Below the pieces are notes generated by a model that was not told where the DNA came from, made no database searches, and saw nothing but the letters and a program-made list of their open reading frames with translations. Made by a program: the position numbers and the translations under genes. Below are positions 1 through 31,172 of a stretch of 32,000 nucleotides of DNA, in pieces. The stretch covers positions 3,000,001-3,032,000 of the forward strand of contig NZ_RSDW01000001.1 of NCBI RefSeq assembly GCF_003945235.1, read 5' to 3'. Origin of the DNA: Edaphobacter aggregans. Its GTDB lineage: Bacteria > Acidobacteriota > Terriglobia > Terriglobales > Acidobacteriaceae. How positions within the stretch are numbered: position 1 is the stretch's first letter; every line of letters begins with the position of its first letter.

Positions 1-845
1 AGGAGGATTATGTCGCTGCTGCGGTTACAGATTTGCGGGAGGATGAGTTGGCGCTGATGTCGGCGCATGGCTTGACGGCGGAGCAGATTGGGTTTCGGCG
101 GGGGCTGGAGGCGAGTTATCGCGGGCTACGGTCGCAGGAGTTTGCTGAGGATGCGGAGAGCTGCTTCAAGGCTACGGGTGAGTGCTGCTTTGAGGTTCAG
201 GCGGTCGAGGCTCGGTTGAAGGAGCTGCAGGAGCCCGTTGCGTGTCGGCGCGGTGGGGCTTTGCAGGTTTGGCTGCCTCCGGTTGCGGGGAAGGAGTATC
301 TGGTTGCGGTGGATACGGCGGGTGGTGGCGCGGATGGGGACTTTGCGGCGGTGCAGGTGATCGAGATGGTGTCGGGGATGCAGTGCGCGGAGTTGCAGCA
401 GAGGATTGGGACGCTGGAGCTGGCAAGAGTTTCGGCGGAGCTGGCAAGGGAGTATGGCGGGGCTTTGATCGCGGTGGAGAGGAATAATCATGGCGCTGGT
501 GTGCTGGCTTATCTGGATAGCGTTGAGCGTTACGCTCGGGTTTATGAGCAGGGCGGAGTCGCGGGATGGTTGACGACGGCGGGGAGCAAGCCGGGGATGG
601 TGAGCCGGATGGGGGCTTTGCTGGCAGAGTCCCCCTGGTTGTTTTTTAGCAGGAGGTTGTTGGGGGAGTGCCGGACTTTTGTTTCGATGGCCGGGGGACG
701 GACTGGGGCTGCTAGTGGGGCTCATGATGATTGTTTGATGGCTATGGCGATTGGGCAGGCGGTTCGGGCGGAGTTGGCGGGGAAGAAGAAGGATGGGCCG
801 AAGCTAAGGGAGGGGTGGGACTCGCGGGCTTTTTGGGTTGGGTGA
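1..845 (+). CDS. terL: Phage terminase large subunit, C-terminal (nuclease) portion; 5' end lies outside the window
   Basis: The reading frame is open from nt 3 to the stop at 843-845; the track ORF 33..845 starts at an internal TTG. TerL-type RNaseH-like nuclease motifs are present: LVAVDTAGGGADGDFAAV, IAVERNNHG, GAHDDCLMAMAIG. A portal gene follows downstream on the same strand. Confidence 0.8.
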   Translation, partial: EDYVAAAVTDLREDELALMSAHGLTAEQIGFRRGLEASYRGLRSQEFAEDAESCFKATGECCFEVQAVEARLKELQEPVACRRGGALQVWLPPVAGKEYLVAVDTAGGGADGDFAAVQVIEMVSGMQCAELQQRIGTLELARVSAELAREYGGALIAVERNNHGAGVLAYLDSVERYARVYEQGGVAGWLTTAGSKPGMVSRMGALLAESPWLFFSRRLLGECRTFVSMAGGRTGAASGAHDDCLMAMAIGQAVRAELAGKKKDGPKLREGWDSRAFWVG

Positions 846-900
846 GGAGGGCATCGCGGAAGTGCAAGAGCAAAAGCACTCGGGTCGCTTCGCTCCCCTC

Positions 901-938
901 GGAAATGCGGGGGTTCTTCGCTGCGCTCAGAATGACAA
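901..938. repeat. Dispersed hairpin repeat unit (core TTCTTCGCTGCGCTCAGAATGAC)
   Basis: GGAAATGCGGGGGTTCTTCGCTGCGCTCAGAATGACAA matches the reverse complement of 18997-19034 at 36/38 positions by my own alignment. A partial copy lies at 2016-2038. A second unit and an ATCCCC-TTC-GGGGAT hairpin (977-991) adjoin it. Confidence 0.75.
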
Positions 939-1109
939 GCAAAAAGTAACAACGACAACTACAAAAGCAGAAGCAGATCCCCTTCGGGGATGACAACTAG
1001 AAAGGCAACCGCAAAAGCAACGACAACGGCACACTATAACAAAGGCGGCACATTACGACGGTGGCTAGTATTCTGTTGCGGGGGAGTTTCGGGCTTGGCG
1101 GTTTTGGCG

Positions 1110-1961
1110 GTGCAGGCGATTCGTCGGATGCGGGGTGGGGCGCAGAGCCAGTTGATGCTGGGGGCCGATGGGAAGCTTTGGGTGGTGAAGTTTCAGAATA
1201 ATCCGCAGCATTTGCGGGTGTTGGCGAATGAGTTGATCGCGACTCGGCTGGCGGCTGCGGTAGGGTTGACCGTTCCACAGAGCGATGTGGTCGAGGTGAC
1301 GGAGTGGCTGGTGGCTAATTCTCCTGGGATGCATGTCGAGTTGCCTCGGGGGCAGAGGGAGCAGTATTCGGCGGGGCTGCAGTTTGGGTCGCAGTTTGTG
1401 GGCGGGCTGATGCCTGGGCAGGTGGTGGATTATCTGCCCGAGCAGCAGCTGGATGAGGTGAGGAATCTGGCGGAGTTTGCGGGGATCCTGTGCATCGACA
1501 AATGGGCGGGTAACTGTAATGGGCGGCAGGCGGTGTTCGAGCGGAGGTCGAGGGAGCGGAAGTATCGGGTTACGTTTATCGATCAGGGATTTTGCTTCAA
1601 TGCGGGGGAGTGGACGTTTCCGGATTCGCCGCTGCGGGGGGTGTATCAGCGGAATCGGGTGTATGCGGGCGTAACGGGGTGGGAGAGCTTTGAGCCTTGG
1701 CTGAGTCGAGTGGAGGAGATGCGGGCCGATACTCTTTGGGGGATCGCGGAGGTGGTTCCGCCGGAGTGGTATGGCGGGGATACCGTGGTGATCGAGCGGT
1801 TGATGGAGCAGATGCTGATGCGGCGGTCGCGGGTGAGGGAGTTGATAGGGTGGTTTCGGGATTCGAATCGGGAGCCTTTCCCGATGTGGGAAAAGAAGGT
1901 GAGTGCGGTTGTGCCGAGGCAGTTTGCTGAGTTGAGTGTGGCGGGTAAGTTTGTAATGTAG
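1110..1961 (+). CDS. HipA-like / PI3-4-kinase-fold Ser/Thr protein kinase (HipA family kinase)
   Basis: Kinase motifs: glycine-rich RMRGGAQS, VVKF lysine, catalytic-loop-like CIDKWAGNCNGRQ, metal-binding TFIDQGFCF. The track ORF starts at 990, but 990-1109 is repeat-derived sequence and the ATG at 990 lies inside a hairpin. A likelier start is GTG 1110 or ATG 1128. The stop at 1959-1961 is firm. Confidence 0.65.
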   Translation: MQAIRRMRGGAQSQLMLGADGKLWVVKFQNNPQHLRVLANELIATRLAAAVGLTVPQSDVVEVTEWLVANSPGMHVELPRGQREQYSAGLQFGSQFVGGLMPGQVVDYLPEQQLDEVRNLAEFAGILCIDKWAGNCNGRQAVFERRSRERKYRVTFIDQGFCFNAGEWTFPDSPLRGVYQRNRVYAGVTGWESFEPWLSRVEEMRADTLWGIAEVVPPEWYGGDTVVIERLMEQMLMRRSRVRELIGWFRDSNREPFPMWEKKVSAVVPRQFAELSVAGKFVM

Positions 1962-2015
1962 TGGATGGTTGTTGGATTGCTGAAGAAAAGGACAAGTCAA
2001 AAACAAATACAGGGA

Positions 2016-2038
2016 TCCTTCGCTACGCTCAGAATGAC
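2016..2038. repeat. Partial copy of the dispersed repeat (TCCTTCGCTACGCTCAGAATGAC)
   Basis: Matches 914-936 at 21/23 positions in the same orientation. It lies in the 135-bp gap between the kinase and DUF3037 genes. Confidence 0.6.
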
Positions 2039-2096
2039 GGACTTCAAGCCATGTGAAGGTTGCCAATGCTTAGAGTTGATTGAAAGGGAATAGGGC

Positions 2097-2939
2097 GTGA
2101 GGGAACGGTTGCCGTGCGAGTTCTTCCTGATTCGGTATGTGCCGGATGTGGTGAAGGGCGAGTTTGCGAATATCGGTGTGCTGCTGCGAGAGGCAGGGCG
2201 CGACGATAGCGCGGTGGTGCGTTTTACGCGGGACTGGAGCCGGGTGAAGTGTCTGGATGCGGATGCAGATATCGGGCTGCTGGAGGGATTGGAGTCGGAG
2301 ATTGCGGCTCGGTTGCGGATGGGTGCGGCGGATACGAAGCCGGTGATGCAGGTGCTCGAGGATACGCTGTCGAACTCGGTGCAGATGACGGAGGTTCGGG
2401 CTTCGCTGGCGGAGAGTATGCCGGCTGAGTTGGACCAGCTAATGCGGATGTATGTGGAGCCTCTGAAGGTGAAGCAGGAACGGAAGAGGACGGGGCGGGC
2501 GGCGATTGCGGGGGCGATGCGGACGGAGTTTGAGCGCGCGGGGGTGTGGGGATTGATGCGGAAAAGGATTGCGGTTTCGCTGTATACGCGGGCGGGGGAT
2601 CCGATGAAGATTGATTGTGGGTATCGGGCTGATCTGCAAACTGCGGGTGGGGTGGTCCGGATGTTTCAGGCTGTGTCGCTGGAGGGTGATGTGGAGGGAG
2701 CGAAGGGTTTGGCTTACTCGGCTCCGCAGTTGATGGAGGGCGTGCAGCGGGTGGAGGGAGCAGCGCTGGAGTTGACGGCGGTGGTGGAGCCTCTGCGGAC
2801 TGTGTCGGAATTGGAAGATGAGGCTATGGAGCGGTATCGGTTCGGGGTGGAGGCCATGGAGCGACAGGCGATTCGGGTGGTGACGGTGAGTGACCTGGCG
2901 AGAGTGGCGGCTATGGCGAGGGTGGAGTTGCGGGTTTAG
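2097..2939 (+). CDS. DUF3037 domain protein
   Basis: The N-terminus CEFFLIRYVPDVVKGEFANIGVLLRE matches my memory of the DUF3037 (PF11236) signature y-x-v-i-R-y-v-P-d-x-x-r-g-E-f-x-N-i-G-v. GTG start preceded by AAGGGA. The ORF is codon-usage coherent. Confidence 0.65.
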   Translation: MRERLPCEFFLIRYVPDVVKGEFANIGVLLREAGRDDSAVVRFTRDWSRVKCLDADADIGLLEGLESEIAARLRMGAADTKPVMQVLEDTLSNSVQMTEVRASLAESMPAELDQLMRMYVEPLKVKQERKRTGRAAIAGAMRTEFERAGVWGLMRKRIAVSLYTRAGDPMKIDCGYRADLQTAGGVVRMFQAVSLEGDVEGAKGLAYSAPQLMEGVQRVEGAALELTAVVEPLRTVSELEDEAMERYRFGVEAMERQAIRVVTVSDLARVAAMARVELRV

Positions 2940-2969
2940 GAATTGGGTATCAGGTTTCGGATTTCGGGA

Positions 2970-3004
2970 GGCATAGCCGGTTTGGCTGTGCCTTTTTTCT
3001 TTTG
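2970..3004 (+). terminator. Rho-independent terminator closing the kinase/DUF3037 cassette
   Basis: GGCATAGCC-GGTTT-GGCTGTGCC forms a 9-bp stem (one G-U pair) with a 5-nt loop, followed by TTTTTTCTTTT. It starts 31 nt after the DUF3037 stop and lies upstream of the portal start. Confidence 0.75.
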
Positions 3005-3035
3005 TGGTGGATGTGATTTGGAGAGAGGTGAAGGC

Positions 3036-4280
3036 ATGGGCGTTCGGACGACGATGAAGAGTGTTTGGGAACGGTTGGCGGGAGTGGAGGCTGCGGCGGC
3101 TGGGGACGTGATCGTGGGGGAGCGGAAGACGGCTATGCTGCCTTCGATTCTGAGTCCGTATCAGGTTGGGCGTACGGGGCAGAACGCTTTGCCGAAGCCT
3201 ACTCCGGCGAATCTGCGGAAGTTTGCGGAGACGCCCGTGGTGCGGCGGGCGATCAACGTGGTGAAGGACAAGATCGCCAGCATGGATTGGCAGGTGCGGG
3301 TGCGGCGCGGCTACTCGGAGGCGACGGTGGAGGATGCTGCCGCGCGGATGGTTGTGTTGCGGCGTTGCCTGGAAGAGCCGAATGCTTCGGATAGCTTTCG
3401 GGTGTTGTGGGAACAGGTGATCGAGGATCTGCTGGTGGGCGGGTTTGGCGCGGTAGAGATGGAGGCTACGCGTGATTCGGAGCGGCCGTTTCATCTGTGG
3501 GCGGTGGATGGAGCGACGATCCAGATCGACAGCAGGTGGGATGGCGATCCGGAGAAGCCGCGATATGCGCAGGCTACGGGGCAGTTGGGCAGGGATGGGT
3601 TGGTTCCACTGCTGGATGACGAGCTGATGTATCTGCGGCTGAATCCGCGGACCCATACTCCGTTTGGGCTGGGGCGGCTGGAGGTTGCGTTCGAGACGGT
3701 GAATCAGTTTTTGAGTGCGAATCGGTATGCGGGGCGGCTGGCTTCGAATTCTGTGGTGCAGTATGCGCTTTGGCTGAATGAGGCTACGCCGGAGCAGCAC
3801 GATCGGCTGATTCGGTGGTGGCAGGATGAGATTGAAGGAACGGGCCGTGTGCCGCTGCTGAGCTGCGAGCAGAAGCCAGAGGTGCTGCGGTTTGCGGGCG
3901 GAACCGATGCCGATCTCCGGTTGCAGTGGCAGGAGGCGCTGATCCGGATGATTGCGAATGCGTTTGAGCTGCCGCCGATGTTGCTGGGGCTGCAAGGCGA
4001 TGTCAATCGCTCAACCGCGGGCGAGATGGCGGATGAGGCGTTTCAGAGCGCGGTGGTTCCGGTGGCGAAGCTGGTGGCGGAGCACATTACGCGCGATCTG
4101 TTTGCGAAAAAGCTGGGTTGGCGCGAGTTCGAGTTCTGCTTCAACGATCTGGCGAGCAGGGACGAGATGGAGGAATTGCAGATTCAGACAGCTCTGTTGA
4201 GTGCGGGCGTGTTGACGGTGGATGAGGTGCGGCAGATGCGAGGGCTGGGTCCGTTGCAGAGCGAAGAGGTGACGCAGTGA
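3036..4280 (+). CDS. Phage portal protein
   Basis: ATG at 3036 is preceded by GAGAGAGG. The track start at 2943 would run through the terminator. Length (about 414 aa) and sequence (LRKFAETPVVRRAINVVKDKIASMDWQV, ANAFELPPMLLG) resemble HK97/Phage_portal-type portals. It is positioned after terL. Confidence 0.75.
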   Translation: MGVRTTMKSVWERLAGVEAAAAGDVIVGERKTAMLPSILSPYQVGRTGQNALPKPTPANLRKFAETPVVRRAINVVKDKIASMDWQVRVRRGYSEATVEDAAARMVVLRRCLEEPNASDSFRVLWEQVIEDLLVGGFGAVEMEATRDSERPFHLWAVDGATIQIDSRWDGDPEKPRYAQATGQLGRDGLVPLLDDELMYLRLNPRTHTPFGLGRLEVAFETVNQFLSANRYAGRLASNSVVQYALWLNEATPEQHDRLIRWWQDEIEGTGRVPLLSCEQKPEVLRFAGGTDADLRLQWQEALIRMIANAFELPPMLLGLQGDVNRSTAGEMADEAFQSAVVPVAKLVAEHITRDLFAKKLGWREFEFCFNDLASRDEMEELQIQTALLSAGVLTVDEVRQMRGLGPLQSEEVTQ

Positions 4281-6592
4281 AGGTGACGATCGACAATCTG
4301 GATGGCCAGGGTGCGGTGGACTATAGCGCCGCACTCTGCGCAGATGTGCCGTTGAAGATCGAGCGTGTGCTGAATGCTCCTTCGCGGTGCAGCGGGATGT
4401 TGGATGTGAGTGATGCGGGGCTGGCTGTTCCTATGAGGCGCGGACGGATAGTGGTGATTTCGGCTAGCGGGACAGTGTTGTTCACCGGATATGTAGCGAC
4501 GGAGCCGCAGGCTGTGTATGCGGGGACTGCGACGAAGGGTCCGGTATATCGGTACGCGTTCAGCGCGATCAGCGATGAGTGGCTGCTGGATAAGCAGAGC
4601 GTTCCGGTGAGCGGGGCGGGATTGGCGCAGGCTGCCGGGCAGGTGTTGACGACGCTCACGAATCGCGTGGATGGTGGACTCTTCACGACGACGGGTGTTC
4701 TGAATGGAGCGGCGGTTGGCGTGTTCGACCCGGCGCCTGCGGGGAGTTGGTCGGTGAATGCGGGAAATGTCGCTGCGGCTACCTATGCGTCGTATCGTGT
4801 GCTGAATGGCGCGGTGAGCTTGCAGCCTGCGGGGACGGTGACACATACTCTGAGCGATGGCGATGGGACGCTGCAGGTGGCGGCGTTGCAGACTTCGGCG
4901 GTGAAGGAGCTGGCCAACGATGTGACGGTGAGCGGTGAGATGGAGCCTGCGGCCTACATTACCGAGACGTTTGCGGGGGATGGGACGACGACGGTGTTTC
5001 AGCTTTCTGAAGCGCCGTTTCGGCCGAAGGGGGCGGCCAACTCTTCGTTACTGCTGTCGGACAGCTTCAACCAGGGTGTGTTCAATCCGCAGGTGTGGCA
5101 GCTGGCCGATCCGGGATCGCATCTTGGTTTGAGCGCTGCTGGGCTGACGATGACCGGCGGCAACGGCTTCGATGGGCAGACGACTCTGATGGCGATTGAT
5201 GCTATCGAGATGGGTGGCACGCTGGTGATTGAGGCTGGCAACGTGCAATTTGGCGTGGCCAGCGATGGCGTGGTGTGCGGATTGTACTCGGGCGTGATAG
5301 AGAGGGCGAACTGCTTTGTCGGATACAACGTGAGGCAGAGTGGCGGGTCGACGGTGGTGATCCCGTTGGTCAACGGTGCTGAGGTTGGGATGGTGTACAC
5401 GCTGCTCAGCGGGCATACGTACACGCTGCGGATCCGGCTGCACTGCGTGGAGACACAGCGAGTGTTGCAGCGCTACTACGCCATGGTGGATGGAGCGGTG
5501 GAGGCTTTCGGCGGTGGAGTGGTTTCGGCGCCGATGGCAGTGGTGTTCGAGTTGCAGGACCTTGGAGTGGCGTCGAATACTCCGGCGACAGTGTTGTATG
5601 ACGGCGCGGTGACGAGTTCACCGGCGAGTTGTAGTTTCGTCTCTGTGAACAGCGTGCAGCTATTTGGGTCGATGGGCTATTGCAGAGTGACACAGACCGG
5701 GTCGGCATGGGTGGCGAGTACGCTGCCGAGTGGAGTGAAGATGACTCGGCTGATTGGAGTTGCTGGCGAAGGTATCAATTGCACGGTATCTGCTACCGGT
5801 AAGGTTACATTTTTAGCCGGCCGTGTTCCGGTAGCGGGCGAGCTTGTTACTGTGACGTATCGCGGGCAACAGAGAGCCATTGCTCGACTGGAGGATCCTG
5901 CCAGCGTCGCGGCGGAGGCCGAGGGTAGTGCGCCGGGGACTGCTCGCTGGCTAGGTAAGGTGCTACGACCTGCGTCGCGGAGCTCAGTGGATTGCGAGAA
6001 CGCTGCGCAAGCTGTATTGAGTTTTTCGGCCAGTCGGGCTGCGGCTGTGGCAGGGACCTATGAGGCGATGAACCCCAGCGATGTTTGGCCCGGGGATGTA
6101 CTGACGATTACGAGCCGTGGCAAAACGATGAACGTAGTTGTGCGGCAGGTTGCGATTGAAGATGGGTCGTCGTGGCCTGAGGCGCTGACGTATCGAATTG
6201 CGTTTGCGAACGATTGGGCTGAAGGTTTGGGTTTGACTTTGTCGGAGGCGATTGCAGCAGATGCGTTGCTGCCTCTGACGGCGTTGGCGACACCGGGCAA
6301 TGTGCTTGCGAACCTGCAGCAATTGCAAGTGGTGAGCGCGACGGGGACCGCGCTGCAGGTGGATGCTGGAACGGCTCCCCCTGCAGGCGGCGGGTTTGAA
6401 GTGCGACGGCGGGATTGGGACTTCGGGCTGGGTGTCGATCAGGATTTGGTCCTGCGAAGTCCGGTGCGGAATTTTTCGATTCCACGAGAGGGGCAGGTGG
6501 AGCAGTACTACGTGCGGATGTACGACGGATCGGCTCCGCCGGTGTATTCGCGGTTTTCGAGTGCGGTGTTTACGAATCTGCCGGTGAGTTAG
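4277..6592 (+). CDS. Large phage structural protein, probably tail hub / host-recognition type (771 aa)
   Basis: GTG start overlaps the portal stop (GTGA). The N-terminus resembles gpD/Vgr/tail-tip hub patterns (RIVVISASGTVLFTGYVATEP...YRYAFSAISDEWLL). It has a GDGTTTVFQL motif as in GTA/phage tail proteins, a beta-rich middle region, and a second hub-like module (WPGDVLTITSRGKTMNVVVRQVAIEDG). Confidence 0.5.
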   Translation: MKVTIDNLDGQGAVDYSAALCADVPLKIERVLNAPSRCSGMLDVSDAGLAVPMRRGRIVVISASGTVLFTGYVATEPQAVYAGTATKGPVYRYAFSAISDEWLLDKQSVPVSGAGLAQAAGQVLTTLTNRVDGGLFTTTGVLNGAAVGVFDPAPAGSWSVNAGNVAAATYASYRVLNGAVSLQPAGTVTHTLSDGDGTLQVAALQTSAVKELANDVTVSGEMEPAAYITETFAGDGTTTVFQLSEAPFRPKGAANSSLLLSDSFNQGVFNPQVWQLADPGSHLGLSAAGLTMTGGNGFDGQTTLMAIDAIEMGGTLVIEAGNVQFGVASDGVVCGLYSGVIERANCFVGYNVRQSGGSTVVIPLVNGAEVGMVYTLLSGHTYTLRIRLHCVETQRVLQRYYAMVDGAVEAFGGGVVSAPMAVVFELQDLGVASNTPATVLYDGAVTSSPASCSFVSVNSVQLFGSMGYCRVTQTGSAWVASTLPSGVKMTRLIGVAGEGINCTVSATGKVTFLAGRVPVAGELVTVTYRGQQRAIARLEDPASVAAEAEGSAPGTARWLGKVLRPASRSSVDCENAAQAVLSFSASRAAAVAGTYEAMNPSDVWPGDVLTITSRGKTMNVVVRQVAIEDGSSWPEALTYRIAFANDWAEGLGLTLSEAIAADALLPLTALATPGNVLANLQQLQVVSATGTALQVDAGTAPPAGGGFEVRRRDWDFGLGVDQDLVLRSPVRNFSIPREGQVEQYYVRMYDGSAPPVYSRFSSAVFTNLPVS

Positions 6593-6609
6593 CGGCGAGG
6601 AGGTGGGAG

Positions 6610-6825
6610 ATGACGGAGTTTGAAGGACAGGTTCTGGCGGACCTGCGTGTGTTGAAGAGTCAAATGGAACATTTAATCGGGATCGGTCAACCGGGGCGCA
6701 TCGTTCAGATCGAAGAACGGGTGGAGCGTCATGAGCGGAGTGTGCAGCGGATCAAGGGTGTGTTCGCTGCGTTTGGTGGGCTGCTAACGATGGTTCATCT
6801 AGCGATGGCTTATCTGCGGCGTTAG
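6610..6825 (+). CDS. Small tail-anchored coiled-coil membrane protein (71 aa), phage-associated
   Basis: ATG 6610 is preceded by GGAGGTGGGAG. It has a charged helical N-part and a C-terminal hydrophobic helix GVFAAFGGLLTMVHLAMAYL. The track ORF 6415..6825 overlaps the preceding gene, so the shorter start is preferred. Confidence 0.5.
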   Translation: MTEFEGQVLADLRVLKSQMEHLIGIGQPGRIVQIEERVERHERSVQRIKGVFAAFGGLLTMVHLAMAYLRR

Positions 6826-6840
6826 TTTAGAGAGGAAGGA

Positions 6841-7104
6841 ATGGGAGTGGATTTCTTGAAGCTGTTTTTACGTGGCGTTGCGATGTTACCTGGGGTGATT
6901 CAAGGGACAGAGGCTCTGTTCGGCGCTGCGACTGGTGAACAGAAGAGGACGGCCGCGGTGGAAATCGTTGGTGCGGCAATTAACATCACCGATGCTGTGT
7001 CGAAGAAGCAGATCGCCGATGCGGATAAATTCACCGCAGGATTGAACGGGATCATTGACGGTTTCGTGACGTGCTTGAATGCGAGTATGTGGGCGAAGCA
7101 GTAG
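6841..7104 (+). CDS. Small hypothetical phage-associated protein (87 aa)
   Basis: ATG is preceded by GAGAGGAAGGA. It is the last gene of the plus-strand block before purE. No family recognised. Confidence 0.45.
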   Translation: MGVDFLKLFLRGVAMLPGVIQGTEALFGAATGEQKRTAAVEIVGAAINITDAVSKKQIADADKFTAGLNGIIDGFVTCLNASMWAKQ

Positions 7105-7153
7105 ATGGCGGCGTTCATGGCCCAGACCTGTGGGACACGTATAATCGAGGGCT

Positions 7154-7657
7154 ATGAGCGCCGGACCGTTGGTTGGAATAGTGATGGGAAGCCGCAATGA
7201 TTATGCGGTGATGCGGAGTGCTGCGGAGATGCTGACGGAGTTCGGCGTAGCGCATGAGGTTCGTGTGGTTTCGGCACACCGGACGCCTGATCTGCTGTTC
7301 GAGTACGCGGAGACGGCGATCGCACGAGGGCTGCGTGTGATCATCGCTGGAGCTGGTGGCGCGGCGCACCTGCCGGGGATGATTGCAGCGAAGACGGTGG
7401 TTCCAGTGCTGGGTGTGCCCATCCCTGCGACAGCGCTGCAAGGGATGGATTCCCTGCTGAGCATTGTGCAGATGCCAAAGGGCGTTCCTGTGGGGACGCT
7501 GGCGATTGGCTCGGCGGGCGCGGCGAATGCAGGGTTGCTGGCGGCGGAGATTCTGGCGACGACAGATGCGGCGTTGCAGGCGAAGCTGGTGGCTTGGCGT
7601 GCGGCTCGGCGAGATGAGGTGCTGGCGCAGGTCGTTGGCGATGAGGTCGGCGCGTGA
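7154..7657 (+). CDS. purE: N5-carboxyaminoimidazole ribonucleotide mutase
   Basis: [14 protein letters not shown]...RVVSAHRTP...[14 protein letters not shown]...PVLGVPI is the canonical PurE signature. Confidence 0.95.
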
Positions 7658-9917: not shown

Positions 9918-11558
9918 TCAACCGATGTCTTCGTTCCAGTTCTCCAGATAAGCCTTGAAGTCGGACATGAATTTTCCGGCGTCAGCTCCGTCAACGATGC
10001 GGTGGTCGAAGCCGAGCGTGAAGCGCTGGATGGACCGGATGGCGATGGAGTCGTTGCCGTCCTTGTCGGTGAGGACTTCGGCTTCTTTATTGAGCCCACC
10101 GATGCCGAGAATCGCGCTCTGCGGCTGGTTGATGATCGGCGTGCCGAACTGCTCGCCGAAGATGCCGGAGTTGGTCAGCGTGAAGGTGCCCCCGGAGATC
10201 TCGTCCGGAGCAAGCTTCTTGCCACGAGCGCGGTCAGCTACATCGACGATGCCGCGTGCGATGCCGAGGAAGTTCTTCTCCTCGGTCTGCTTGAGCACGG
10301 GAACAATCAAACCCCAGTCCAGCGCAACAGCGATGCCGATGTTGATGTTCTTGTTGTAGCGAATCGCCTCGCCATCGATCGACGCGTTGACGATCGGGTG
10401 CTTGCGCAGCGCAACAATAGCAGCACGCGTGATGAAGGGCATGTACGTCAGCTTGACGCCATTGCGCTGCTCATACTTCGACTTCTCTTTCTCGCGGAGC
10501 TTCACAATGCGCGTCATGTCCACCTTGAAGACGGTGTGGACGTGCGGACTGGTGCGCTTGGACTCGACCATGCGCTGCGCGATGATGGAGCGCATCTTGG
10601 TCATCGGCACGAGCTCGCCGGGCAACGGCTGCGCTGGCGCAGGAGCGGCAGGCTTGGCGGCTGCTGGCGCAACCGCGGCAGGTGCCGGAGCAGCCGGCTT
10701 TGCTCCGCCCTCGAGATGGCCGAGGATGTCGCTCTTGGTGATGCGGCCTGCGGACCCTGTGCCCGCGACCTGAGTGAGGTCAACGTCGTTCTCGCGCGCG
10801 ATCTTGCGGACCAGCGGAGAAGAGCGGGGATGATCGCCAACTGCAGCTACTGGAGCTGAAGTCGCCACAGGTGCAGGAGCAGAGGCTGCGGGAGCCGGTG
10901 CTGCAGCCGCCGGTGCGGGGGCCGCCTTCCCTGCAGCGCCACCAATGACAGCCACTACAGTGTTGATCGTAACGGTCTTGCCCTCTCCGACCTTGATCTC
11001 GGTAAGGGTTCCGGCAACAGGCGAAGGAATCTCGGCGTCAACCTTGTCCGTGGAGATCTCGAAGATGGGCTCGTCGCGCTGGACGCTGTCGCCAACCTTC
11101 TTGAGCCACTTGGTGATGGTGCCTTCGGTGATGGATTCGCCCATCTGCGGCATCAACACCTCGGTGCCGACGCCCGATTCAATCTTGGTGCCCGCAGCTG
11201 CGACATCAGCCGCAGCTGGATTGCCCTGAGTTGCTGCTGGCGCATCCACGGCTGAAGGCGTTGCAGTGTCCGTTGAGGGAGTCGCCGCAGTTTCGGCCTT
11301 CGCCGCCGCTGCTCCAGATCCACCTTCCTCGATCGTTGCAACGACCGTGTTGATCTGCACCGTAGTCCCCTCGGCGATCTTGATCTCCTTCAGGGTCCCA
11401 GCCGATGGCGAAGGAATCTCGGCGTCGACCTTATCGGTAGAAATCTCGAAGAGCGGTTCGTCACGCTGGACGGTGTCGCCGGGCTTCTTGAGCCATTTGG
11501 TGATGGTGCCTTCAGTGATGGATTCGCCCATCTGGGGCATAACTACTTCAGTCGGCAT
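9918..11558 (-). CDS. 2-oxoacid dehydrogenase E2 component (dihydrolipoyllysine-residue acyltransferase), SucB/OdhB-like, two lipoyl domains
   Basis: Two copies of MPQMGESITEGTITKWLKK..GD.VQRDEP.FEISTDKVDAEIPSP, Ala/Pro linkers, an E3-binding domain (SPLVRKIARENDVDL) and the catalytic DHRIVDG motif. Confidence 0.9.
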   Translation of the reverse strand: MPTEVVMPQMGESITEGTITKWLKKPGDTVQRDEPLFEISTDKVDAEIPSPSAGTLKEIKIAEGTTVQINTVVATIEEGGSGAAAAKAETAATPSTDTATPSAVDAPAATQGNPAAADVAAAGTKIESGVGTEVLMPQMGESITEGTITKWLKKVGDSVQRDEPIFEISTDKVDAEIPSPVAGTLTEIKVGEGKTVTINTVVAVIGGAAGKAAPAPAAAAPAPAASAPAPVATSAPVAAVGDHPRSSPLVRKIARENDVDLTQVAGTGSAGRITKSDILGHLEGGAKPAAPAPAAVAPAAAKPAAPAPAQPLPGELVPMTKMRSIIAQRMVESKRTSPHVHTVFKVDMTRIVKLREKEKSKYEQRNGVKLTYMPFITRAAIVALRKHPIVNASIDGEAIRYNKNINIGIAVALDWGLIVPVLKQTEEKNFLGIARGIVDVADRARGKKLAPDEISGGTFTLTNSGIFGEQFGTPIINQPQSAILGIGGLNKEAEVLTDKDGNDSIAIRSIQRFTLGFDHRIVDGADAGKFMSDFKAYLENWNEDIG

Positions 11559-17363: not shown

Positions 17364-17945
17364 CTAGCTGCGATCCGCAATCGCGTCATACTCCATCCCC
17401 GACGTCGCCGGAGCCAGCACCCACAACGTGTAGATACCAAGCGCGGTCCCGAACGGAAACTTCAGCAGCGACAGAACAGACACGACAATCGCCAGCACCC
17501 TTCCCCAGGGCCTCCGCGTCAGCAGCGCATAGCCCACCAGCAAAGCCAACGCCGACGCCAGCACAGCCGCCACCATGATCACCGGCAGCAAAGCAGCCAT
17601 CCACTGTGGCCCGAATGGCCCGCCGTGGTGCCCAAACTCCCAATTGTCTCCAAACCGCCCGAACCACATCATCTTGACGAAAAACATCGCCATCAAGCCG
17701 CCCAGCAGCCGAAACGCCCCAAAGGCGCACCACAGAATCCCCAGCAATTGCAGATTCCGCTGCACACGCGGAGCCGGCTTGTACATGGGCGGCGGATAGT
17801 TCGCATACACCGGTTGACCCGCCATTGGCTGAGCCGCCACAACCTGCGCCCCGCACCTCGAACAAAAGTGAACCCCTTCTCCAACTGCAGCACCACAAGC
17901 CTGACAGACCATCGCACACCTCTGACTTTCCAGCGTCCCCATCAT
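17364..17945 (-). CDS. Zinc-ribbon domain membrane protein
   Basis: N-terminal CQACGAAV...FCSRCGAQV zinc ribbon, a Pro-rich linker, then about 4 hydrophobic helices. The start may be the internal M at MVCQACG. Confidence 0.65.
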   Translation of the reverse strand: MMGTLESQRCAMVCQACGAAVGEGVHFCSRCGAQVVAAQPMAGQPVYANYPPPMYKPAPRVQRNLQLLGILWCAFGAFRLLGGLMAMFFVKMMWFGRFGDNWEFGHHGGPFGPQWMAALLPVIMVAAVLASALALLVGYALLTRRPWGRVLAIVVSVLSLLKFPFGTALGIYTLWVLAPATSGMEYDAIADRS

Positions 17946-18011
17946 TCCGGGACAGGCGCTTGTATCTGCTACGCGTACGCGCAGACGGTTGTTCCCTGCG
18001 AGATTACGATA

Positions 18012-20735
18012 GTGGAAGTGAATTCTCCAGAACTATTGCCGACCATCCCCTCGCTCCTCCACGAATCCAGCACCTCCGCGCTCGAGTGGCCACGCCTCCG
18101 CGACCACATCGCCGGCCGCACCTTCTCTCCCCTCGGCCGCGCCTGGATCCTCGCCCTAGAACCCTGCGCCGACCTTCCCTGGATCGACCAGCAACACCAG
18201 CGCACCGCCGAGATGCGCGCCATGCTCTTGTCAGGCGGCAGCTTCGAGTTCCGTGGCCTCTTCGACCCCACGCTCCTCCTCGACAAAGCCCGCATCGAAG
18301 GCTCAGCCCTTGAAGGCCTTGAGGTTCGCGACCTCCTCACCGTAGCCGAGCGAGTCGCCGCCTGGCGCACCCTCATCGACCCACCACCCAACGCCCCACG
18401 TTACGACTGGCCCGCCATCGATGCCCTCTCTGGCTCCCTCCGCGCCTTCGACCTCAACCCACTCCTCCACCAGCTACGCGGCAAGATCGAACCCGACGGC
18501 TCCCTCAACGACGACGCATCCCCCGAACTTCGCCGCATCCGCCGCGCCATGGAACGCCAACACCGCGCCATCGAAGAGAGCCTCCGCAAGTCCCTCCGCG
18601 GCCTCAACGAAGGGGGCAGCACCCAGGACGAGCTCATCACCATCCGCGGCGAACGCTTCGTCATCCCCGTCAAGGCCGAGTTCAAGCGCAAAGTCCCCGG
18701 CGTCATCCATGGCTCATCTTCCTCCGGACAAACCGTCTTCATCGAACCCCTCGAAACCATCGAGCAGAACAACGAACTAGTCCGCCTCCTCGACGAAGAA
18801 CAATCCGAGATCCACCGCATCCTCGTCGCCATGACCCGCGCCCTCGGCGACAACGCCACCGCCATCCTCACCGGCACCGCCATCCTCGCCGAAGTCGAAT
18901 CCCACGCCGCCCGAGCCCGCTTCGCCATCGACCTGAACTGCACCCGCCCCACCTTTACCAATAATGCCGTCGCCACGAGCACAGCAACCAATAACGTTGT
19001 CATTCTGAGCGGAGCGAAGAACCCCCGCATTTCGCCTGAAGCGCCACAAACCCGCACTGCTCCACCAGAATCCAACCCAACCAATAACCCTGTCATTTCG
19101 ACCGAACTCCGAGCGAGTGAAGCGAGTCGAGGAGGGAGTGGAGAAACCCGCTTCTCTACCACAACTCCCTACGAGCCCAACACTCAGTCACCCGACCCAC
19201 AACTCTCACTAGTAGCCGCCCGCCACCCCCTCCTTGAACTCCGCATGAGAGCCTCCGCACGCGAAGCGGGCACCGAAGCAGCCACACCCGTCCCCCTAAC
19301 CATCACCCTCACCAACGAAGCCCGCCAGCTCATCATCAGCGGACCCAACACCGGCGGCAAAACCGTCTCCCTCAAAACCCTCGGCCTCCTCTCATTGATG
19401 GCGCAAGCTGGAGTCCCCATCCCCGCCGAAGAAGCCCATCTCCCCCTCTTCACCAGCGTCTACGCCGACATCGGCGACGCCCAATCCATCGAGCGTAACC
19501 TCTCCAGCTTCTCCGCCCACGTCGTCAACCTCGACCGCATCTCCCGCGAAGCCACCGCCTCATCCCTCGTGCTCCTCGACGAACTAGGCTCCGCGACCGA
19601 CCCCGAAGAAGGCGCAGCCCTGGCCGTAGCCATCGCGCAGCACTTCCTCGACATCCACGCCTGGTGCTGCATCACCACCCACCTCACCTCGCTCAAGGTC
19701 TACGCCGCCAATCACGCCGGAGTGTTGAACGCCGCAGTAGGCTTCGACCAGCAGACCCTAACCCCCACCTACCAGCTCCGCCTCGGAGTCCCCGGAGCCT
19801 CCGCCGGCCTCAACATCGCCAGCCGCCTCGGCCTCTCACCCGAGATCATCGCCGCCGCTCGCTCTCAAATGTCCACCCAGACTGCCGACATAGGAGCCTT
19901 CCTCGACCAACTCCACGACCAGCTCACCGCCGCCGCCACCGAGCGCGAAACCCTCCGGCAGCGCGAGCAGCAACTAGCCCGCGAAAAAATCCGCCTCGAA
20001 ACCGAAGGCCGCGCCGAACAAAAAGCCCGCACCAAAGAACTCGAAACCAAGCTCAACTCCCTCATCGAAGACTTCGCCTACCAGCTCCGCGAAACCGTCA
20101 AAGCCATCGACGACAAGACCCTCGCCCAAAAGATCGCTCGCGACTCCGCCACCCGCATCGCCCGCCTGCGGCGCGAGTTCTCCGAACAATTCAACTCCAC
20201 CGTAGTAGCCCACAACACCGGCGCCGACAAGGCCGATCCCAACGCCCAACCCCACATCCCCAAAGGCATCAAGGTCGGCGACCTGGTCAAGCTCAAATCC
20301 CTCGGCCGCCAGGCCCGAGTAGACCGCATCATCGACGCCAAAACCTACGAAGTCTCCATTGGCCCCATGAAGATGCGCGCCGCCATCGACGACATAGCCG
20401 AAGTCGAGACCGTCAAAGTAGCTACGCCCCTCGAAGCCGCCCGCAAGCGCGGAGGCATCACCATCGCCACCGCCAACGACCCCGACTACATGACCTCCGA
20501 GATCAACGTCATCGGCCGCACCGCAGACGAGGCCCACGCCGAAGTCGAACGCTTCCTCGACCGCGCTTTCCTCGCCGGCCTCCCCTGCATCCGCATCGTC
20601 CACGGCACTGGCATGGGCATCCTACGCCGAACCCTCCGCGAATTCCTTCGCAACCACCCCCACGTAGCCACCGTCACCGAACCCCCACAAAACCAAGGCG
20701 GCCAAGGGGCAACCGAAGTCGAATTGAGGCAATGA
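18012..20735 (+). CDS. mutS2: Endonuclease MutS2 (MutS core, Walker A ATPase, C-terminal Smr domain) carrying a repeat-derived in-frame insertion
   Basis: LEWPRLRDHIAGRTFSPLG, RHPLL, ISGPNTGGKTVSLKT, DELGSATDPEEG and Smr (EINVIGRTADEA...RIVHGTGMGILR). The track ORF start at 17625 overlaps the divergent gene. A likelier start is GTG 18012/18018; the exact start is uncertain. Confidence 0.88.
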   Translation: MEVNSPELLPTIPSLLHESSTSALEWPRLRDHIAGRTFSPLGRAWILALEPCADLPWIDQQHQRTAEMRAMLLSGGSFEFRGLFDPTLLLDKARIEGSALEGLEVRDLLTVAERVAAWRTLIDPPPNAPRYDWPAIDALSGSLRAFDLNPLLHQLRGKIEPDGSLNDDASPELRRIRRAMERQHRAIEESLRKSLRGLNEGGSTQDELITIRGERFVIPVKAEFKRKVPGVIHGSSSSGQTVFIEPLETIEQNNELVRLLDEEQSEIHRILVAMTRALGDNATAILTGTAILAEVESHAARARFAIDLNCTRPTFTNNAVATSTATNNVVILSGAKNPRISPEAPQTRTAPPESNPTNNPVISTELRASEASRGGSGETRFSTTTPYEPNTQSPDPQLSLVAARHPLLELRMRASAREAGTEAATPVPLTITLTNEARQLIISGPNTGGKTVSLKTLGLLSLMAQAGVPIPAEEAHLPLFTSVYADIGDAQSIERNLSSFSAHVVNLDRISREATASSLVLLDELGSATDPEEGAALAVAIAQHFLDIHAWCCITTHLTSLKVYAANHAGVLNAAVGFDQQTLTPTYQLRLGVPGASAGLNIASRLGLSPEIIAAARSQMSTQTADIGAFLDQLHDQLTAAATERETLRQREQQLAREKIRLETEGRAEQKARTKELETKLNSLIEDFAYQLRETVKAIDDKTLAQKIARDSATRIARLRREFSEQFNSTVVAHNTGADKADPNAQPHIPKGIKVGDLVKLKSLGRQARVDRIIDAKTYEVSIGPMKMRAAIDDIAEVETVKVATPLEAARKRGGITIATANDPDYMTSEINVIGRTADEAHAEVERFLDRAFLAGLPCIRIVHGTGMGILRRTLREFLRNHPHVATVTEPPQNQGGQGATEVELRQ
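18997..19034. repeat. Dispersed repeat unit inside the mutS2 coding sequence (GTCATTCTGAGCGGAGCGAAGAACCCCCGCATTTCG)
   Basis: Reverse complement of 901-938 at 36/38 positions. Translated in frame as VILSGAKNPRIS. Confidence 0.8.
19092..19156. repeat. Second dispersed repeat unit inside mutS2 (GTCATTTCGACC...GGAGAAACCCGCTTCTC variant)
   Basis: Translated in frame as VISTELRASEASRGGSGETRFS. It has the same CCAATAAC..TGTCATT head as the unit at 18988-19034, and its head resembles the 23-bp motif at 29199/29988. Confidence 0.6.
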
Positions 20736-27511: not shown

Positions 27512-29119
27512 GTGACGACTGAGACGAGAATTGCTGAGCCGCAGGAATTTGCCGCGGTATCAATGAAGGACGCAGTGTGGCTGGCGGCAGGGTTTGGCCT
27601 GCTGAAGTATGTTCTGTCAACGCTGTGCCAGATAACGTTCCAACATGCGGGGTACGGCATTTTTCGTGACGAGCTGTATTTCATCGTGTGCGGCCGGCAT
27701 CTGGCCTGGGGGTATGTGGATCAGCCGCCCATCATTCCCTTGGTGGCACGCATTTCGGAGTTGCTGTTCGGCTTGCATTCGCTGGCCCTGTTCCGGACCT
27801 TTGCCTCGCTGGCGAGTGCCGCGGAAGTCGCGATGACGGGGCTGCTGGCATGGCGAATGGGCGCTTCGCTCTGGGCGCAGGCGCTGGCAATGACGGGGAT
27901 TCTGCTGGCGCCCATGGCCATGGCCACCGCTTCGAACTTTTCGACGAGCACTTTTGAGCCGGTCTTCTGGATGACGGTGGCGCTGGCGACGATGGAGCTG
28001 GCGCGGCTGGCCGATCGCGGCATTCGCAGTGGCCGTACAGTGGCGTTGTGGTGGGTCCTGCTCGGCGTGGCATCGGGCCTGGCCCTCGAAAACAAGTGGA
28101 ACGGGGTTTTCTTCCTCACCTGTCTGCTGGCGGCGCTGCTGATGACCAGCCAGAGAAAGTTACTGGCTTCGAAATGGTTCCCAATCGGCTTTGCGCTAAT
28201 TGTCGTGCTGATTCTGCCCAATTTGCTGTGGGAGATGCACCATCACTGGGCAACGCTCGAGCTGCTGCACAACGATCAGATTAACGGCAAGAACGTTCGT
28301 CTGGGCCCCATTGCATTTGCGCTGAACCAGATGGTCGTCTTCGGTCCTCTGATGGCGCCGTTGTGGGCGGGAGGCTTTCTGTGGCTGCTCTTCAGCCGGG
28401 CGGCGCAGGCATTCCGCTTTCTGGGCGTGACGTATCTGCTGTATCTGCCCCTGATGATGATTCTGCACGCCAAGGACTATTACCTTGCGGCCATTTATCC
28501 GATCTATTTTGCCGCGGGGGCGGCGGCCTGGGATCTTCTCTTCCGCAAGGCCTGGTTGCGGCGCGGGCTCACGCCCGTTTACGTGGCGATGAACGTGCTT
28601 CTCATCGCGATTCTGTTGCCAGCCATTCTCCCGGTACTGCCCCCGGCAAAAATTCTTGCCTATCAGCAGCGGCACCATCTGCAACCCCAGAAAAGGGAAA
28701 ATGCTACCACCTCGCCGCTGCCGCAGCTCTACGCCGACATGCTGGATTGGCGGCAGAAGGCGGACCTGCTGGCCGCTGCCTGGTACTCGCTGCCGCAGGC
28801 GGAGCGCGCACAGGCCGTGATCTACACGGAGAACTATGGCGCCGCGAGCGCGGTGAACGTGTACCGGCCGGATGTGCCGGAGGCCATCAGCGGTCACCAG
28901 AACTACTTCTTGTGGGGACCACGCACGTATACAGGTAGCGTGATGATCGTGTTTGGCGAAAGCCGCAGGACGCTCGAAACCAACTTCGACTCAGTAGTGG
29001 AATTTACGCAGGATGCAAATCCGTATTTGGAGCCGTATGAGCGTGGGCCGGTTTTCATCTGCAGAGGCCTCCATGAAAATCTCCAGGCGGTGTGGCCAAA
29101 GATGAAGAACTGGGCGTGA
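27512..29119 (+). CDS. Family 39/83 (ArnT/PMT-like) membrane glycosyltransferase
   Basis: DELYFIVCGRHLAWGYVDQPP motif, about 11 TM segments, then a soluble C-terminal domain. Start is GTG 27512, or ATG 27563 as an alternative. Confidence 0.75.
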   Translation: MTTETRIAEPQEFAAVSMKDAVWLAAGFGLLKYVLSTLCQITFQHAGYGIFRDELYFIVCGRHLAWGYVDQPPIIPLVARISELLFGLHSLALFRTFASLASAAEVAMTGLLAWRMGASLWAQALAMTGILLAPMAMATASNFSTSTFEPVFWMTVALATMELARLADRGIRSGRTVALWWVLLGVASGLALENKWNGVFFLTCLLAALLMTSQRKLLASKWFPIGFALIVVLILPNLLWEMHHHWATLELLHNDQINGKNVRLGPIAFALNQMVVFGPLMAPLWAGGFLWLLFSRAAQAFRFLGVTYLLYLPLMMILHAKDYYLAAIYPIYFAAGAAAWDLLFRKAWLRRGLTPVYVAMNVLLIAILLPAILPVLPPAKILAYQQRHHLQPQKRENATTSPLPQLYADMLDWRQKADLLAAAWYSLPQAERAQAVIYTENYGAASAVNVYRPDVPEAISGHQNYFLWGPRTYTGSVMIVFGESRRTLETNFDSVVEFTQDANPYLEPYERGPVFICRGLHENLQAVWPKMKNWA

Positions 29120-30146: not shown

Positions 30147-31172
30147 CTAAACCACAACACGCGAAGTCGCCCGAAGCCCAACCCACGTGTCCCGCACAAA
30201 CACCACCACATCCCAAATAAGCTTCAGCGTCGCAATCAAAAGAGCAACCCGGAAACCCAGGTAGATCGCCTGGTTAAGCGCAGCCAGAGTCTCATGCGGC
30301 AGCGACTTAAACCCTTGCGCAGGAACAAAATAGATCTGCGCTCGCACCATCACCGCAAGAATCCCCAACCCCAGCGCATGAACCACCAGGTCGAGAACCT
30401 TCCGCCACGTACCGAACCGCCGGATCCCAATCATTATGGCCTTGAGCACCAGCTGCGCGACCAGCAACCCGATAATCTGCCAGTAAAACGTATGCCACTG
30501 CGGCGTAAACCCTATCTGCTGGTTCTTCAGGTAATCGACGCCCGGTCCTAGAATCAGGAACGGCCGCGTAGGAATCGCCAGCAACCAAAGCAACATAACT
30601 GCGCTGACGATCAGATCCGCAATGCCACTCGCCAATGAGGGCACCTTGCCACGACTCTTCTCCACACGAGGAAGATCACGCGGATTCCACGGCTGCGCGA
30701 TGCTCGTACCATTGTGTCTGCAGGCCCACTCGATGCCGACAAAGACCGCTGTCATCACTCCCCAGAACGCGAACAGCGTGCCCGGAAGATGTCCAATGGC
30801 CGCGCCAATTACCGCGCCAATATTGACTCTTCCATGGGTCTGAAACACGAGATTCACCACCTGCGCAAAGACGGAGAACAGAATCACCCAAGGTAGGCTC
30901 CTGCGCAGCGCAAGCAGGTAGAAGGGGAACACCTCCGGGCCAATCAGCGACTGCTGCGGACGATACCGCGAAGCAACAACGATCGGGCGCCCGTGGTTGC
31001 GAATGATCTCGACCAGTTCATCCTCTGTGAGCCGCCGGCCCAGCTGCTCTTCACGGTCTTCAATCATCGCAAGAAGGTTAACCCGAAGCTCGGCCAGTGT
31101 GTCGTCTTTGCTGGCGGCAGGAAGGTATTCGCCAATAGCCTGGAGATAGCGGTCAAGGATATCCATAGTCAT
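30147..31172 (-). CDS. PadR-coupled membrane protein (DUF1700/HAAS-like or permease-prefix-like N-terminal helix bundle plus multi-TM region)
   Basis: Likely start is MTMDILDRYLQAIGEYLP at 31172, sharing one nt with the padR stop (TAATG). The track start at 31352 would overlap padR. About 6-8 hydrophobic segments. Confidence 0.65.
   Translation of the reverse strand: MTMDILDRYLQAIGEYLPAASKDDTLAELRVNLLAMIEDREEQLGRRLTEDELVEIIRNHGRPIVVASRYRPQQSLIGPEVFPFYLLALRRSLPWVILFSVFAQVVNLVFQTHGRVNIGAVIGAAIGHLPGTLFAFWGVMTAVFVGIEWACRHNGTSIAQPWNPRDLPRVEKSRGKVPSLASGIADLIVSAVMLLWLLAIPTRPFLILGPGVDYLKNQQIGFTPQWHTFYWQIIGLLVAQLVLKAIMIGIRRFGTWRKVLDLVVHALGLGILAVMVRAQIYFVPAQGFKSLPHETLAALNQAIYLGFRVALLIATLKLIWDVVVFVRDTWVGLRATSRVVV

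Follow-up and report, generated by a model that had tools for sequence, protein, structure and literature searches.

The 32,000-nucleotide stretch of Edaphobacter aggregans DNA analysed here (contig NZ_RSDW01000001.1, positions 3,000,001 to 3,032,000; called "the window" below) carries a pair of genes, for a short HipA-like kinase and for a protein with a DUF3037 domain, situated between terL, the gene of the large terminase subunit, which ends at position 845, and the portal gene, which starts at 3036. This arrangement of two same-strand genes was noticed in an earlier sequence-only reading of the window and is supported by Pfam. Judged by its profile matches, the pair is of the PDC-M66 (DS-6/HipAD) type, a class that has already been named and experimentally validated in relatives. 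It appears, from the comparison of genomes described below, to be an old and fixed component of a vertically inherited, phage-derived gene cluster in the Acidobacteriaceae. Its biochemical class is not new; what is unusual is its evolutionary behaviour. The explanation favoured here, with moderate confidence, is that a kinase toxin of the PDC-M66/HipAD type and its DUF3037 neutraliser were captured long ago and became fixed in the cluster, which is itself possibly still functional.

Conservation and inheritance of the pair

The portal gene was used to scan a collection containing one genome per species, and the gene order was checked in those loci that had enough upstream DNA. At least 588 portal-related stretches were found, the best 80 of which belong to Edaphobacter, Tunturiibacter, Granulicella, Silvibacterium, Alloacidobacterium, Pseudacidobacterium and other Acidobacteriaceae. 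The order terL, kinase, DUF3037 gene, portal, gene of a 771-residue protein, purE, purK is found in every one of the 78 genome loci with enough flanking sequence. Contigs that carry close homologues of the kinase, including that of Edaphobacter bradus, have terL, the kinase, the DUF3037 gene, portal, genes for proteins of about 775 and 71 residues, purE and purK.

Across the related genome loci, and always compared with the window sequence, the kinase is 62-95% identical with a ratio of non-synonymous to synonymous substitution rates (dN/dS) of 0.14, and the DUF3037 protein is 47-96% identical with a ratio of 0.19. The corresponding values are 51-94% and 0.16 for terL, 68-93% and 0.13 for portal, 44-88% and 0.19 for the 771-residue protein, 71-96% and 0.12 for purE, and 63-95% and 0.09 for purK. 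These ratios are approximate, because dS is saturated at about 1.1-1.4. The rate at which the pair evolves is about as low as that of purE and purK. In Mantel tests against purK the correlation was r = 0.75 for the kinase, 0.78 for portal and 0.77 for purE (all p = 0.001), with a span of 0.66-0.80 over the genes of the cluster, and the distances of kinase and portal are correlated with each other at r = 0.82. The GC content is 0.59-0.62 throughout. The GC skew at third codon positions (GC3 skew) runs on continuously from terL (0.70) through the kinase (0.76) and the DUF3037 gene (0.80) to portal (0.64), and the composition of the pair is not distinct from that of its flanks.

The shared position, the co-divergence with purK, the low dN/dS ratios and the continuous composition together argue for long vertical inheritance under purifying selection. 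The pair was probably taken up by an ancestor of the cluster long ago and kept for its own benefit. A single widespread temperate phage with one attachment site by purE was also considered and was ruled out, since cluster and purK diverge together. Fast turnover is the rule for defence modules, whereas this pair has stayed put through the whole radiation of an abundant soil family. If confirmed, it would provide a natural system for following how a toxin-type defence module turns into a fixed core gene.

The sequence-only reading had taken the pair for a self-contained moron in an ordinary prophage, and had itself named, as a point that would speak against its view, the occurrence of the two genes as conserved virion-assembly components in related prophages. 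The conservation, one half of this point, is what was found: the pair is present in all related loci with flanking sequence, at the same place in all 78, and diverges together with purK in the manner of a core gene. The setting is not that of an ordinary prophage either. There is no integrase and no tRNA in the 32,000 nucleotides of the window, and purE and purK come straight after portal, the 771-residue reading frame and a small reading frame that together end the cluster.

Several observations do favour a recent, self-contained moron that would have its own boundaries and terminator and would provide strain-specific exclusion in a possibly active prophage. The terL and portal genes are usually adjacent and are here 2.2 kb apart, a terminator closes the insert, and DS-6, a related two-gene system, was renamed HipAD after it had been discovered independently in prophages of E. 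coli (Brenes and Laub 2025, as reported in PMC13092281). A HipA_2 kinase that is 48% identical to that of the window is separated by about 3 kb from a phage integrase in a 34.6-kb IMG/VR viral contig (L126:7992-8798), with no terL, portal or recognisable DUF3037 gene adjoining it. Like the morons of lambda and HK97-type prophages, the pair is an extra same-strand unit among late genes with an intrinsic terminator at its end. However, morons are accessory, and the pair is present in all related loci, missing only in distant lineages that have neither terL nor portal. Morons also have a deviant composition, whereas the composition here is like that of the flanks. Of the promoter and terminator that a moron would bring with it, the terminator is present; no sigma-70-like promoter was detected between positions 600 and 3400, in a scan whose model may not fit acidobacterial promoters. 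With the pair fixed in position, co-diverging with purK and followed so closely by purEK, a recent moron is largely refuted and is hardly credible as an explanation.

Dispersed host repeats had been seen in the window and were thought to bound the cassette. The repeats themselves are there, at corrected positions, and their role as borders is not upheld. The first copy, with the core TTCGCTNCGCTCAGAATGAC, is located at 902-938 on the forward strand in the spacer between terL and the kinase, and the second at 2005-2038, also on the forward strand, in the spacer between the kinase and the DUF3037 gene. The third copy is inverted (18997-19033, reverse strand) and is situated inside the open reading frame 17625-20735. 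Three matches in the window compare with 0.01 expected by chance. In the closest relatives, the proteins of which are 93-96% identical, the spacer between kinase and DUF3037 gene is 27-69 nucleotides long, as against 135 in the window, and these short spacers lack the repeat. In other genomes the same repeat is found in the spacer between the DUF3037 gene and portal (L007, L011 and L014) or in that between kinase and DUF3037 gene (L036). Insertion borders were therefore ruled out, the repeat being missing from the spacers of the closest relatives and present in other spacers of the cluster elsewhere. On this distribution, the repeat is an element of the host that inserts between genes and is incidental to the pair. 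A partial copy (19078-19104) is located 93 nucleotides from the third copy, which itself lies upstream of the MutS2-matching part of its reading frame; either MutS2 starts downstream of the repeat, or the repeat is tolerated in frame.

The strong terminator reported for the end of the cassette is present and conserved, its coordinates needing correction only. An intrinsic-terminator-like hairpin with a T-run occupies 2966-3006 on the forward strand, with its stem at 2966-2996, and ends about 30 nucleotides before the start codon of portal. The hairpin has a folding energy of -21 kcal/mol (z = -2.95). A hairpin with a T-run is found in the spacer between the DUF3037 gene and portal in 79 of 83 loci, where the median distance from the hairpin to the portal ATG is 39 nucleotides, and an alignment of 35 sequences contains nine base pairs, eight of them with compensatory double changes. 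This spacer is always at least 80 nucleotides long. The spacers upstream of it are shorter, with medians of 52 nucleotides between terL and kinase, often below 50, and 55 nucleotides between kinase and DUF3037 gene, often 2-30 in relatives, and some of the genes overlap by 4 nucleotides. The simplest reading is that terL, the kinase and the DUF3037 gene would close one transcription unit and that portal would be expressed by read-through or from a promoter missed by the scan.

The two proteins and their class

The kinase can be read from an ATG at 990, giving 323 residues, or from a TTG at 1095 that is preceded by GGGGAG, giving 288 residues (1095-1961, forward strand). More than 7,900 homologues were found. 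The best 120 are 80-96% identical, are mostly 287-288 residues long and cover 89% of the 323-residue form, for which reason the TTG at 1095 is most likely the true start.

A Pfam profile search, which the sequence-only reading had proposed, assigned both proteins to families above the cut-offs. The kinase matches HipA_2 (PF20613) with an E value of 3e-9 and 36.8 bits, as against the curated cut-off of 27, and reaches 25.7 bits with HipA_C, below the cut-off of 30.5; the N-terminal HipA domain was not found with Pfam. It also matches PDC-M66A of PADLOC (E 1.2e-8), mostly over its N-terminal half, and phrog_3162 of PHROGs (3e-12). The motifs RMRGGAQS, VVKF, IDKWAGNCN and IDQGF, on which its description as a HipA/PI3-4K-like kinase had been based, are all found in it. 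The residues R13-G-G-A-Q17, K32, D135-K-W, N140, G143-R-Q145, D163 and G165 are invariant in 77 species, and Q164 is conserved in at least 90% of them. The catalytic core is intact, and the short serine/threonine kinase of HipA_2 type would, by its residues, be catalytically competent.

In a search of PDB sequences the kinase matched HipA at an E value of only about 0.9, with the weak match to Shewanella HipA spanning the segment VKF...NE...RLA...GL. The AlphaFold2 models of both proteins are poor, with a mean predicted local distance difference test (pLDDT) score of 55 for the kinase and 53 for the DUF3037 protein, because the homologues supplied were only those 80-97% identical, and the Foldseek results obtained with these models are therefore leads only. 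The top matches of the kinase model are H. pylori CtkA, Shewanella and E. coli HipA, and PI4KIIalpha (E about 2e-3 to 6e-2, template modelling scores about 0.3-0.4). They are weakly consistent with a predicted fold like that of HipA, CtkA and the PI3- and PI4-kinases. The kinase has no tblastn match in GenBank phages, and neither it nor the DUF3037 protein has a match in NCBIfam.

The second gene (2097-2939, forward strand) encodes a protein of 280 residues that is 100% identical to an Edaphobacter aggregans protein. Its N-terminal part had been suspected to be a DUF3037 domain, and it is: residues 11-120 match PF11236 with an E value of 3e-22 and 79.6 bits, well over the cut-off of 22.6. The protein further matches PDC-M66B (1.7e-9) and phrog_5137 (2e-12). 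The C-terminal 150 or so residues (about 131-280, window 2490-2939) have no family or PDB match. DUF3037 is the sole Pfam match at E values up to 1; DUF1829, the second domain of DS-6B, was not found, nor was a helix-turn-helix (HTH) or other recognisable DNA-binding domain. A search of PDB sequences gave no relative of the protein. Foldseek on the poor model returned weak matches (E of 0.04 or above), many of them to nucleases, namely Mus81/XPF, Card1, Can2, the arenavirus endonuclease and XisH. The conserved residues of the protein show no recognisable canonical D...ExK motif, and these nuclease-like matches are treated as a lead and not as a result.

In PADLOC the two proteins match PDC-M66A and PDC-M66B, which are the two components of one candidate system. 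For five divergent kinases, four from the cluster and the one near the integrase, PDC-M66A is the only or the best PADLOC match, and for five divergent DUF3037 proteins the same is true of PDC-M66B (1e-6 to 2e-15). The kinase precedes the DUF3037 gene directly and on the same strand in the window, in the 78 genome loci, and in 53 of the 56 loci with at least 1.2 kb downstream that came from a scan of metagenomes with distant kinases; that scan yielded 80 loci in all, with kinases 50-71% identical to that of the window. An association of the two families had been put forward in the sequence-only reading, and these counts bear it out, as does the published finding that DUF3037 is strongly associated with HipA-like kinases (PMC12548924).

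In calling the pair uncharacterised, on the other hand, that reading is superseded by PDC-M66 and the validated DS-6/HipAD type. In the Retron-Sda1 operon, defence against phage Bas51 is abolished when the kinase is deleted, and loss of the DUF3037 gene is toxic; neither the reverse transcriptase nor the non-coding RNA of the retron is needed (PMC12548924). DS-6 has been validated as an anti-phage defence system, a catalytic mutant of DS-6A loses defence, and a complex of the DS-6 kinase with its DUF3037 partner has been predicted with AlphaFold3 (PMC13092281). The earlier suggestion of a toxin-antitoxin or abortive-infection module is in keeping with these experiments on related pairs and is how the class is now seen.

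The pair in the window resembles PDC-M66/DS-6/HipAD systems in having two genes, with the HipA-like kinase first and the DUF3037 protein second, and in keeping the catalytic residues. It differs from DS-6 in the second protein, since DS-6B has DUF1829 where a different C-terminal half is found here; DUF1829 is specific to DS-6B and is no requirement for PDC-M66. It also differs in distribution, in that PDC-M66/HipAD systems elsewhere are patchy or mobile and the acidobacterial pair, present in one copy, is passed on vertically throughout a bacterial family and keeps a fixed place between terL and portal. The canonical HipBA systems of E. coli and Shewanella belong to the same kinase superfamily, as the Foldseek matches to 4pu4, 3dnv and 3tpv suggest, and share the logic expected of a growth-arresting kinase toxin. 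However, HipA has about 440 residues as against 288 here, where the cut-off of HipA_2 is reached and that of HipA_C is not. The antitoxin of HipBA is an upstream HTH protein, HipB, whereas here the upstream gene is terL and the partner is the downstream DUF3037 protein. By size and Foldseek rank the kinase is nearer to H. pylori CtkA (3akl) than to HipA.

If the favoured explanation is right, the DUF3037 protein would hold the kinase inactive until it was released by a trigger, for example infection by a phage or the activation of the cluster itself. The freed kinase would then phosphorylate a host target, by analogy with HipA perhaps a translation factor such as an aminoacyl-tRNA synthetase, and the outcome would be growth arrest or abortive infection. 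The role of the pair would be in defence, in control of the cluster, or in both.

Several points weigh against this explanation. The functional evidence all comes from relatives outside the Acidobacteria; the similarity to the PADLOC profiles is moderate (E 1e-8 and 2e-9) and confined chiefly to the N-terminal halves; and, as the DUF3037 protein is without DUF1829, its neutralising or sensing part may differ from that of DS-6B. The models, with pLDDT scores of 53-55, are too poor for an interaction or the C-terminal fold to be judged from them. Defence systems are normally patchy and mobile. A fixed, single-copy pair with nearly housekeeping conservation is atypical for defence, and a core cellular or particle-linked role would fit such conservation equally well.

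The phage-derived cluster and pairs outside it

The cluster to which the pair belongs is about 17-18 kb long (for example L084:1-18813) and adjoins purEK in every related Acidobacteriaceae genome sampled, which amounts to several hundred species of the family at the least. The gene order upstream of the window start is taken from the closest relative, L006. The proteins recognised in the cluster are a small Sigma70_r4 protein at its left end, terL, portal and, in the relatives, a head-tail adaptor (phrog_442, 8e-15); most of the structural proteins have no family match. The cluster further contains a giant, fibre-like protein of 1,430-1,530 residues, which has GDSL-lipase and LamG domains in the loci of Edaphobacter type, a downstream protein of 771-801 residues, several small proteins, and a highly conserved protein of about 322 residues that is the putative capsid protein, as judged by its position. 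A PDB sequence search gave nothing useful for the putative capsid protein, and no tape-measure or tail-tube gene was recognised in the cluster. No integrase was found in about 18 kb of L084, where the left boundary is just partly covered.

The genes of the cluster are arranged in two orders. In type A, seen in 8 of the 54 scorable genome loci (among them L084, L056 and L064), the capsid block follows portal. In type B, seen in the other 46 (L006 included) and represented also by the window, L001 and L013, it precedes the fibre gene and terL. The block that has moved consists of genes for proteins of 199 and 139 residues, the putative capsid protein, the adaptor, and genes for proteins of 146, 162 and 366 residues. 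In both orders the pair is located between terL and portal.

The portal protein is only 22-24% identical to any in GenBank phages, and there is no cultured relative with which the gene order could be compared. Sixteen such loci are carried as viral contigs in IMG/VR, so that the output of viral-detection pipelines already includes this host locus, a reason for caution. The putative capsid protein is 65-76% identical to a protein in three long IMG/VR contigs (L116, L117 and L118, for example L118:10001-10969), in which almost no further gene of the cluster is detectable; one of them has the 199-residue gene. This suggests mosaic exchange with real phages.

As a whole, the surrounding element is possibly closest to a domesticated phage cluster resembling gene transfer agents (GTAs). 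With GTAs and other domesticated clusters, such as RcGTA of the Rhodobacterales and PBSX of Bacillus, it shares a compact set of head and tail genes with no integrase seen, the vertical inheritance, the co-divergence with the host over a large clade and the purifying selection. However, GTAs proper make particles that transfer DNA, whereas the acidobacterial cluster is known here from its genes alone, and most of its structural proteins, in distinction to those of GTAs, have no family match. A literature search found no GTA or conserved phage-like cluster described for Acidobacteria. No described GTA is known to have a HipA-like kinase/DUF3037 pair inside its structural operon, and the literature search gave none. 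A comparative study reported no prophage in strain KBS 146, yet lists one portal gene for it in its marker-gene table; the genome of this strain bears the cluster as locus L035. If confirmed, the cluster would be a candidate domesticated phage or GTA-like element in the Acidobacteriota, a phylum in which gene exchange and phage biology are poorly known.

Such a setting raises the question of whether the pair is a working part of a domesticated, GTA-like particle system, shutting down the producer cell or timing assembly by phosphorylating terL, portal or capsid proteins, with no part in defence. It has kept its position between terL and portal through the rearrangement of the capsid block, the short spacers suggest co-transcription with terL, and the conserved terminator parts the unit of terL and the pair from portal. 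The closely correlated distances of kinase and portal and the purifying selection on the structural genes are in line with this as well. However, the production of particles is itself putative, tested relatives function without phage structural genes (PMC12548924), and pairs are found that lack such company or have outlasted it, as described next. On balance a role confined to the particle is unlikely.

In the metagenome loci terL is located upstream in 43 of the 60 with at least 1.2 kb on that side, and portal downstream in 29 of the 40 with at least 2.6 kb. The pairs without terL or portal sit among housekeeping genes, often with a 4-nucleotide overlap between kinase and DUF3037 gene. In L174 (4339-10856) the order is 2-oxoacid dehydrogenase E3, a 342-residue gene, MutS2, kinase, DUF3037 gene and DnaG, and the first three of these have counterparts in the window, 58-64% identical and located 10-18 kb downstream of the pair. 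In L176 (215-7337), L175 and L130 the pair is preceded by a CDP-alcohol phosphatidyltransferase gene and followed by a 558-residue gene and 2-oxoacid dehydrogenase E2, and in L148 (874-6197) it is flanked by two peptidase genes. As L174 and L176 share the neighbourhood of E2, E3 and MutS2 in part with the window, there is a hint that the pair has long been at home in this region. A neighbour-joining tree of 168 kinases has a crown group that contains all the genome loci and is wholly cluster-embedded, whereas the stand-alone pairs either are basal or intermingle with deep ones that lie in the cluster. Variant architectures of the family also occur: two kinase genes adjoin each other in L127 (5730-7537, convergent) and L140 (3490-5234, tandem), and L160 and L162 have a short DUF3037-like gene in divergent orientation to the kinase.

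The surroundings of the stand-alone pairs lend something to the notion of a regulatory kinase module that belongs to the core of the Terriglobia, acting for example in stress dormancy or persistence and placed in the cluster by an accident of history, with no link to phages. Its vertical inheritance and nearly housekeeping conservation would be explained, as would the stand-alone pairs beside MutS2, DnaG and E2 in deeper lineages, in part the window's own neighbourhood, and HipA is classically tied to persistence. Nevertheless, the best profiles are those of phage and defence families (PDC-M66, phrog_3162 and phrog_5137), and all genomes of the crown group have kept the pair next to terL and portal. 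Tested relatives, moreover, defend against phage (PMC12548924, PMC13092281). A core module of this kind is considered quite improbable.

A decayed copy of the cluster in L133 (2301-12475) shows what becomes of the pair when its neighbours are lost. Here residues 1-164 of portal abut residues 139-322 of the putative capsid protein, the homologue of the 771-residue protein has only its C-terminal half left, just a fragment remains of the fibre gene, and nevertheless terL, the kinase and the DUF3037 protein are of full length. The survival of the pair in L133 with portal and the putative capsid protein truncated, together with the stand-alone pairs, indicates that it is probably of selective benefit in itself, which speaks for an autonomous toxin and neutraliser, or defence module, rather than for a dedicated factor of particle assembly.

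Such a benefit could also be that of a purely selfish addiction module, which would stop the loss of the DNA around it and so explain the persistence of a prophage remnant. In a relative the deletion of the DUF3037 gene is indeed toxic (PMC12548924), and the pair does outlast its neighbours in L133. Addiction, however, would account neither for the purifying selection on the flanking structural genes (dN/dS 0.13-0.19) nor for their intact state in the sampled genomes, and a chromosomal addiction module has no reason to occupy a strictly conserved position. This is a very unlikely account of the pair.

The favoured explanation, of an anciently captured toxin and neutraliser fixed in the cluster, can be taken one step further, though only tentatively and with more doubt than belief. 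The cluster would then be a family-wide, vertically inherited and still functional phage-derived particle system in which the pair is hard-wired at the end of the terL unit, before the terminator, so that growth arrest or self-protection of the cluster would be coupled to the expression of particles. If this were true, a defence-type toxin module would have become a core component of a domesticated virus.

Neighbouring genes and composition of the window

The start of the window cuts terL, the 3' part of which is read at 33-845 on the forward strand and matches Terminase_6C (E 2.6e-4) and the terminase families phrog_24361 and phrog_38. Full-length homologues in L001, L002 and L084 have 499-513 residues (phrog_2, 1e-27). 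The portal gene (3036-4280, forward strand) begins with an ATG directly 3' of the pair and matches Phage_portal (4e-53) and phrog_2662 (4e-39). It is followed by the gene of the 771-residue protein (4277-6592, forward strand), which is syntenic and conserved across the loci and has no Pfam, PHROG or PDB match; from its position one may guess at a role in the tail or in ejection. Ahead of purE the cluster closes with a small conserved reading frame of about 71 residues (6610-6825, forward strand), which is called as a 71-residue gene in L001 and L002 and has tblastn matches of 40-96% across the loci. No Rfam family was found within 1-7200.

Past about 6.9 kb the window contains housekeeping genes: purE, purK, a glyoxalase, the E2 and E3 components of 2-oxoacid dehydrogenase, a lipoate ligase, an S41 peptidase and MutS2. 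A direct repeat of 215 nucleotides with 80% identity (10951-11552) lies inside the E2 gene, where it corresponds to two lipoyl domains and is ordinary.

The GC3 skew on the coding strand is extreme at the left end of the window, at +0.70 to +0.80 for terL, the kinase and the DUF3037 gene and +0.57 for purE. It crosses zero near 11-12 kb, is -0.4 to -0.6 for forward-strand genes at 14-23 kb, and is positive again in the forward-strand reading frame 27512-29119; at the reverse-strand reading frame 30147-31352 it is negative on the forward strand. A strong GC3 skew is also seen in the relatives L009, L013, L017, L026 and L073, and is not seen in L001, L002, L051 and L078. The switch in skew could mark a replication terminus or past inversions.

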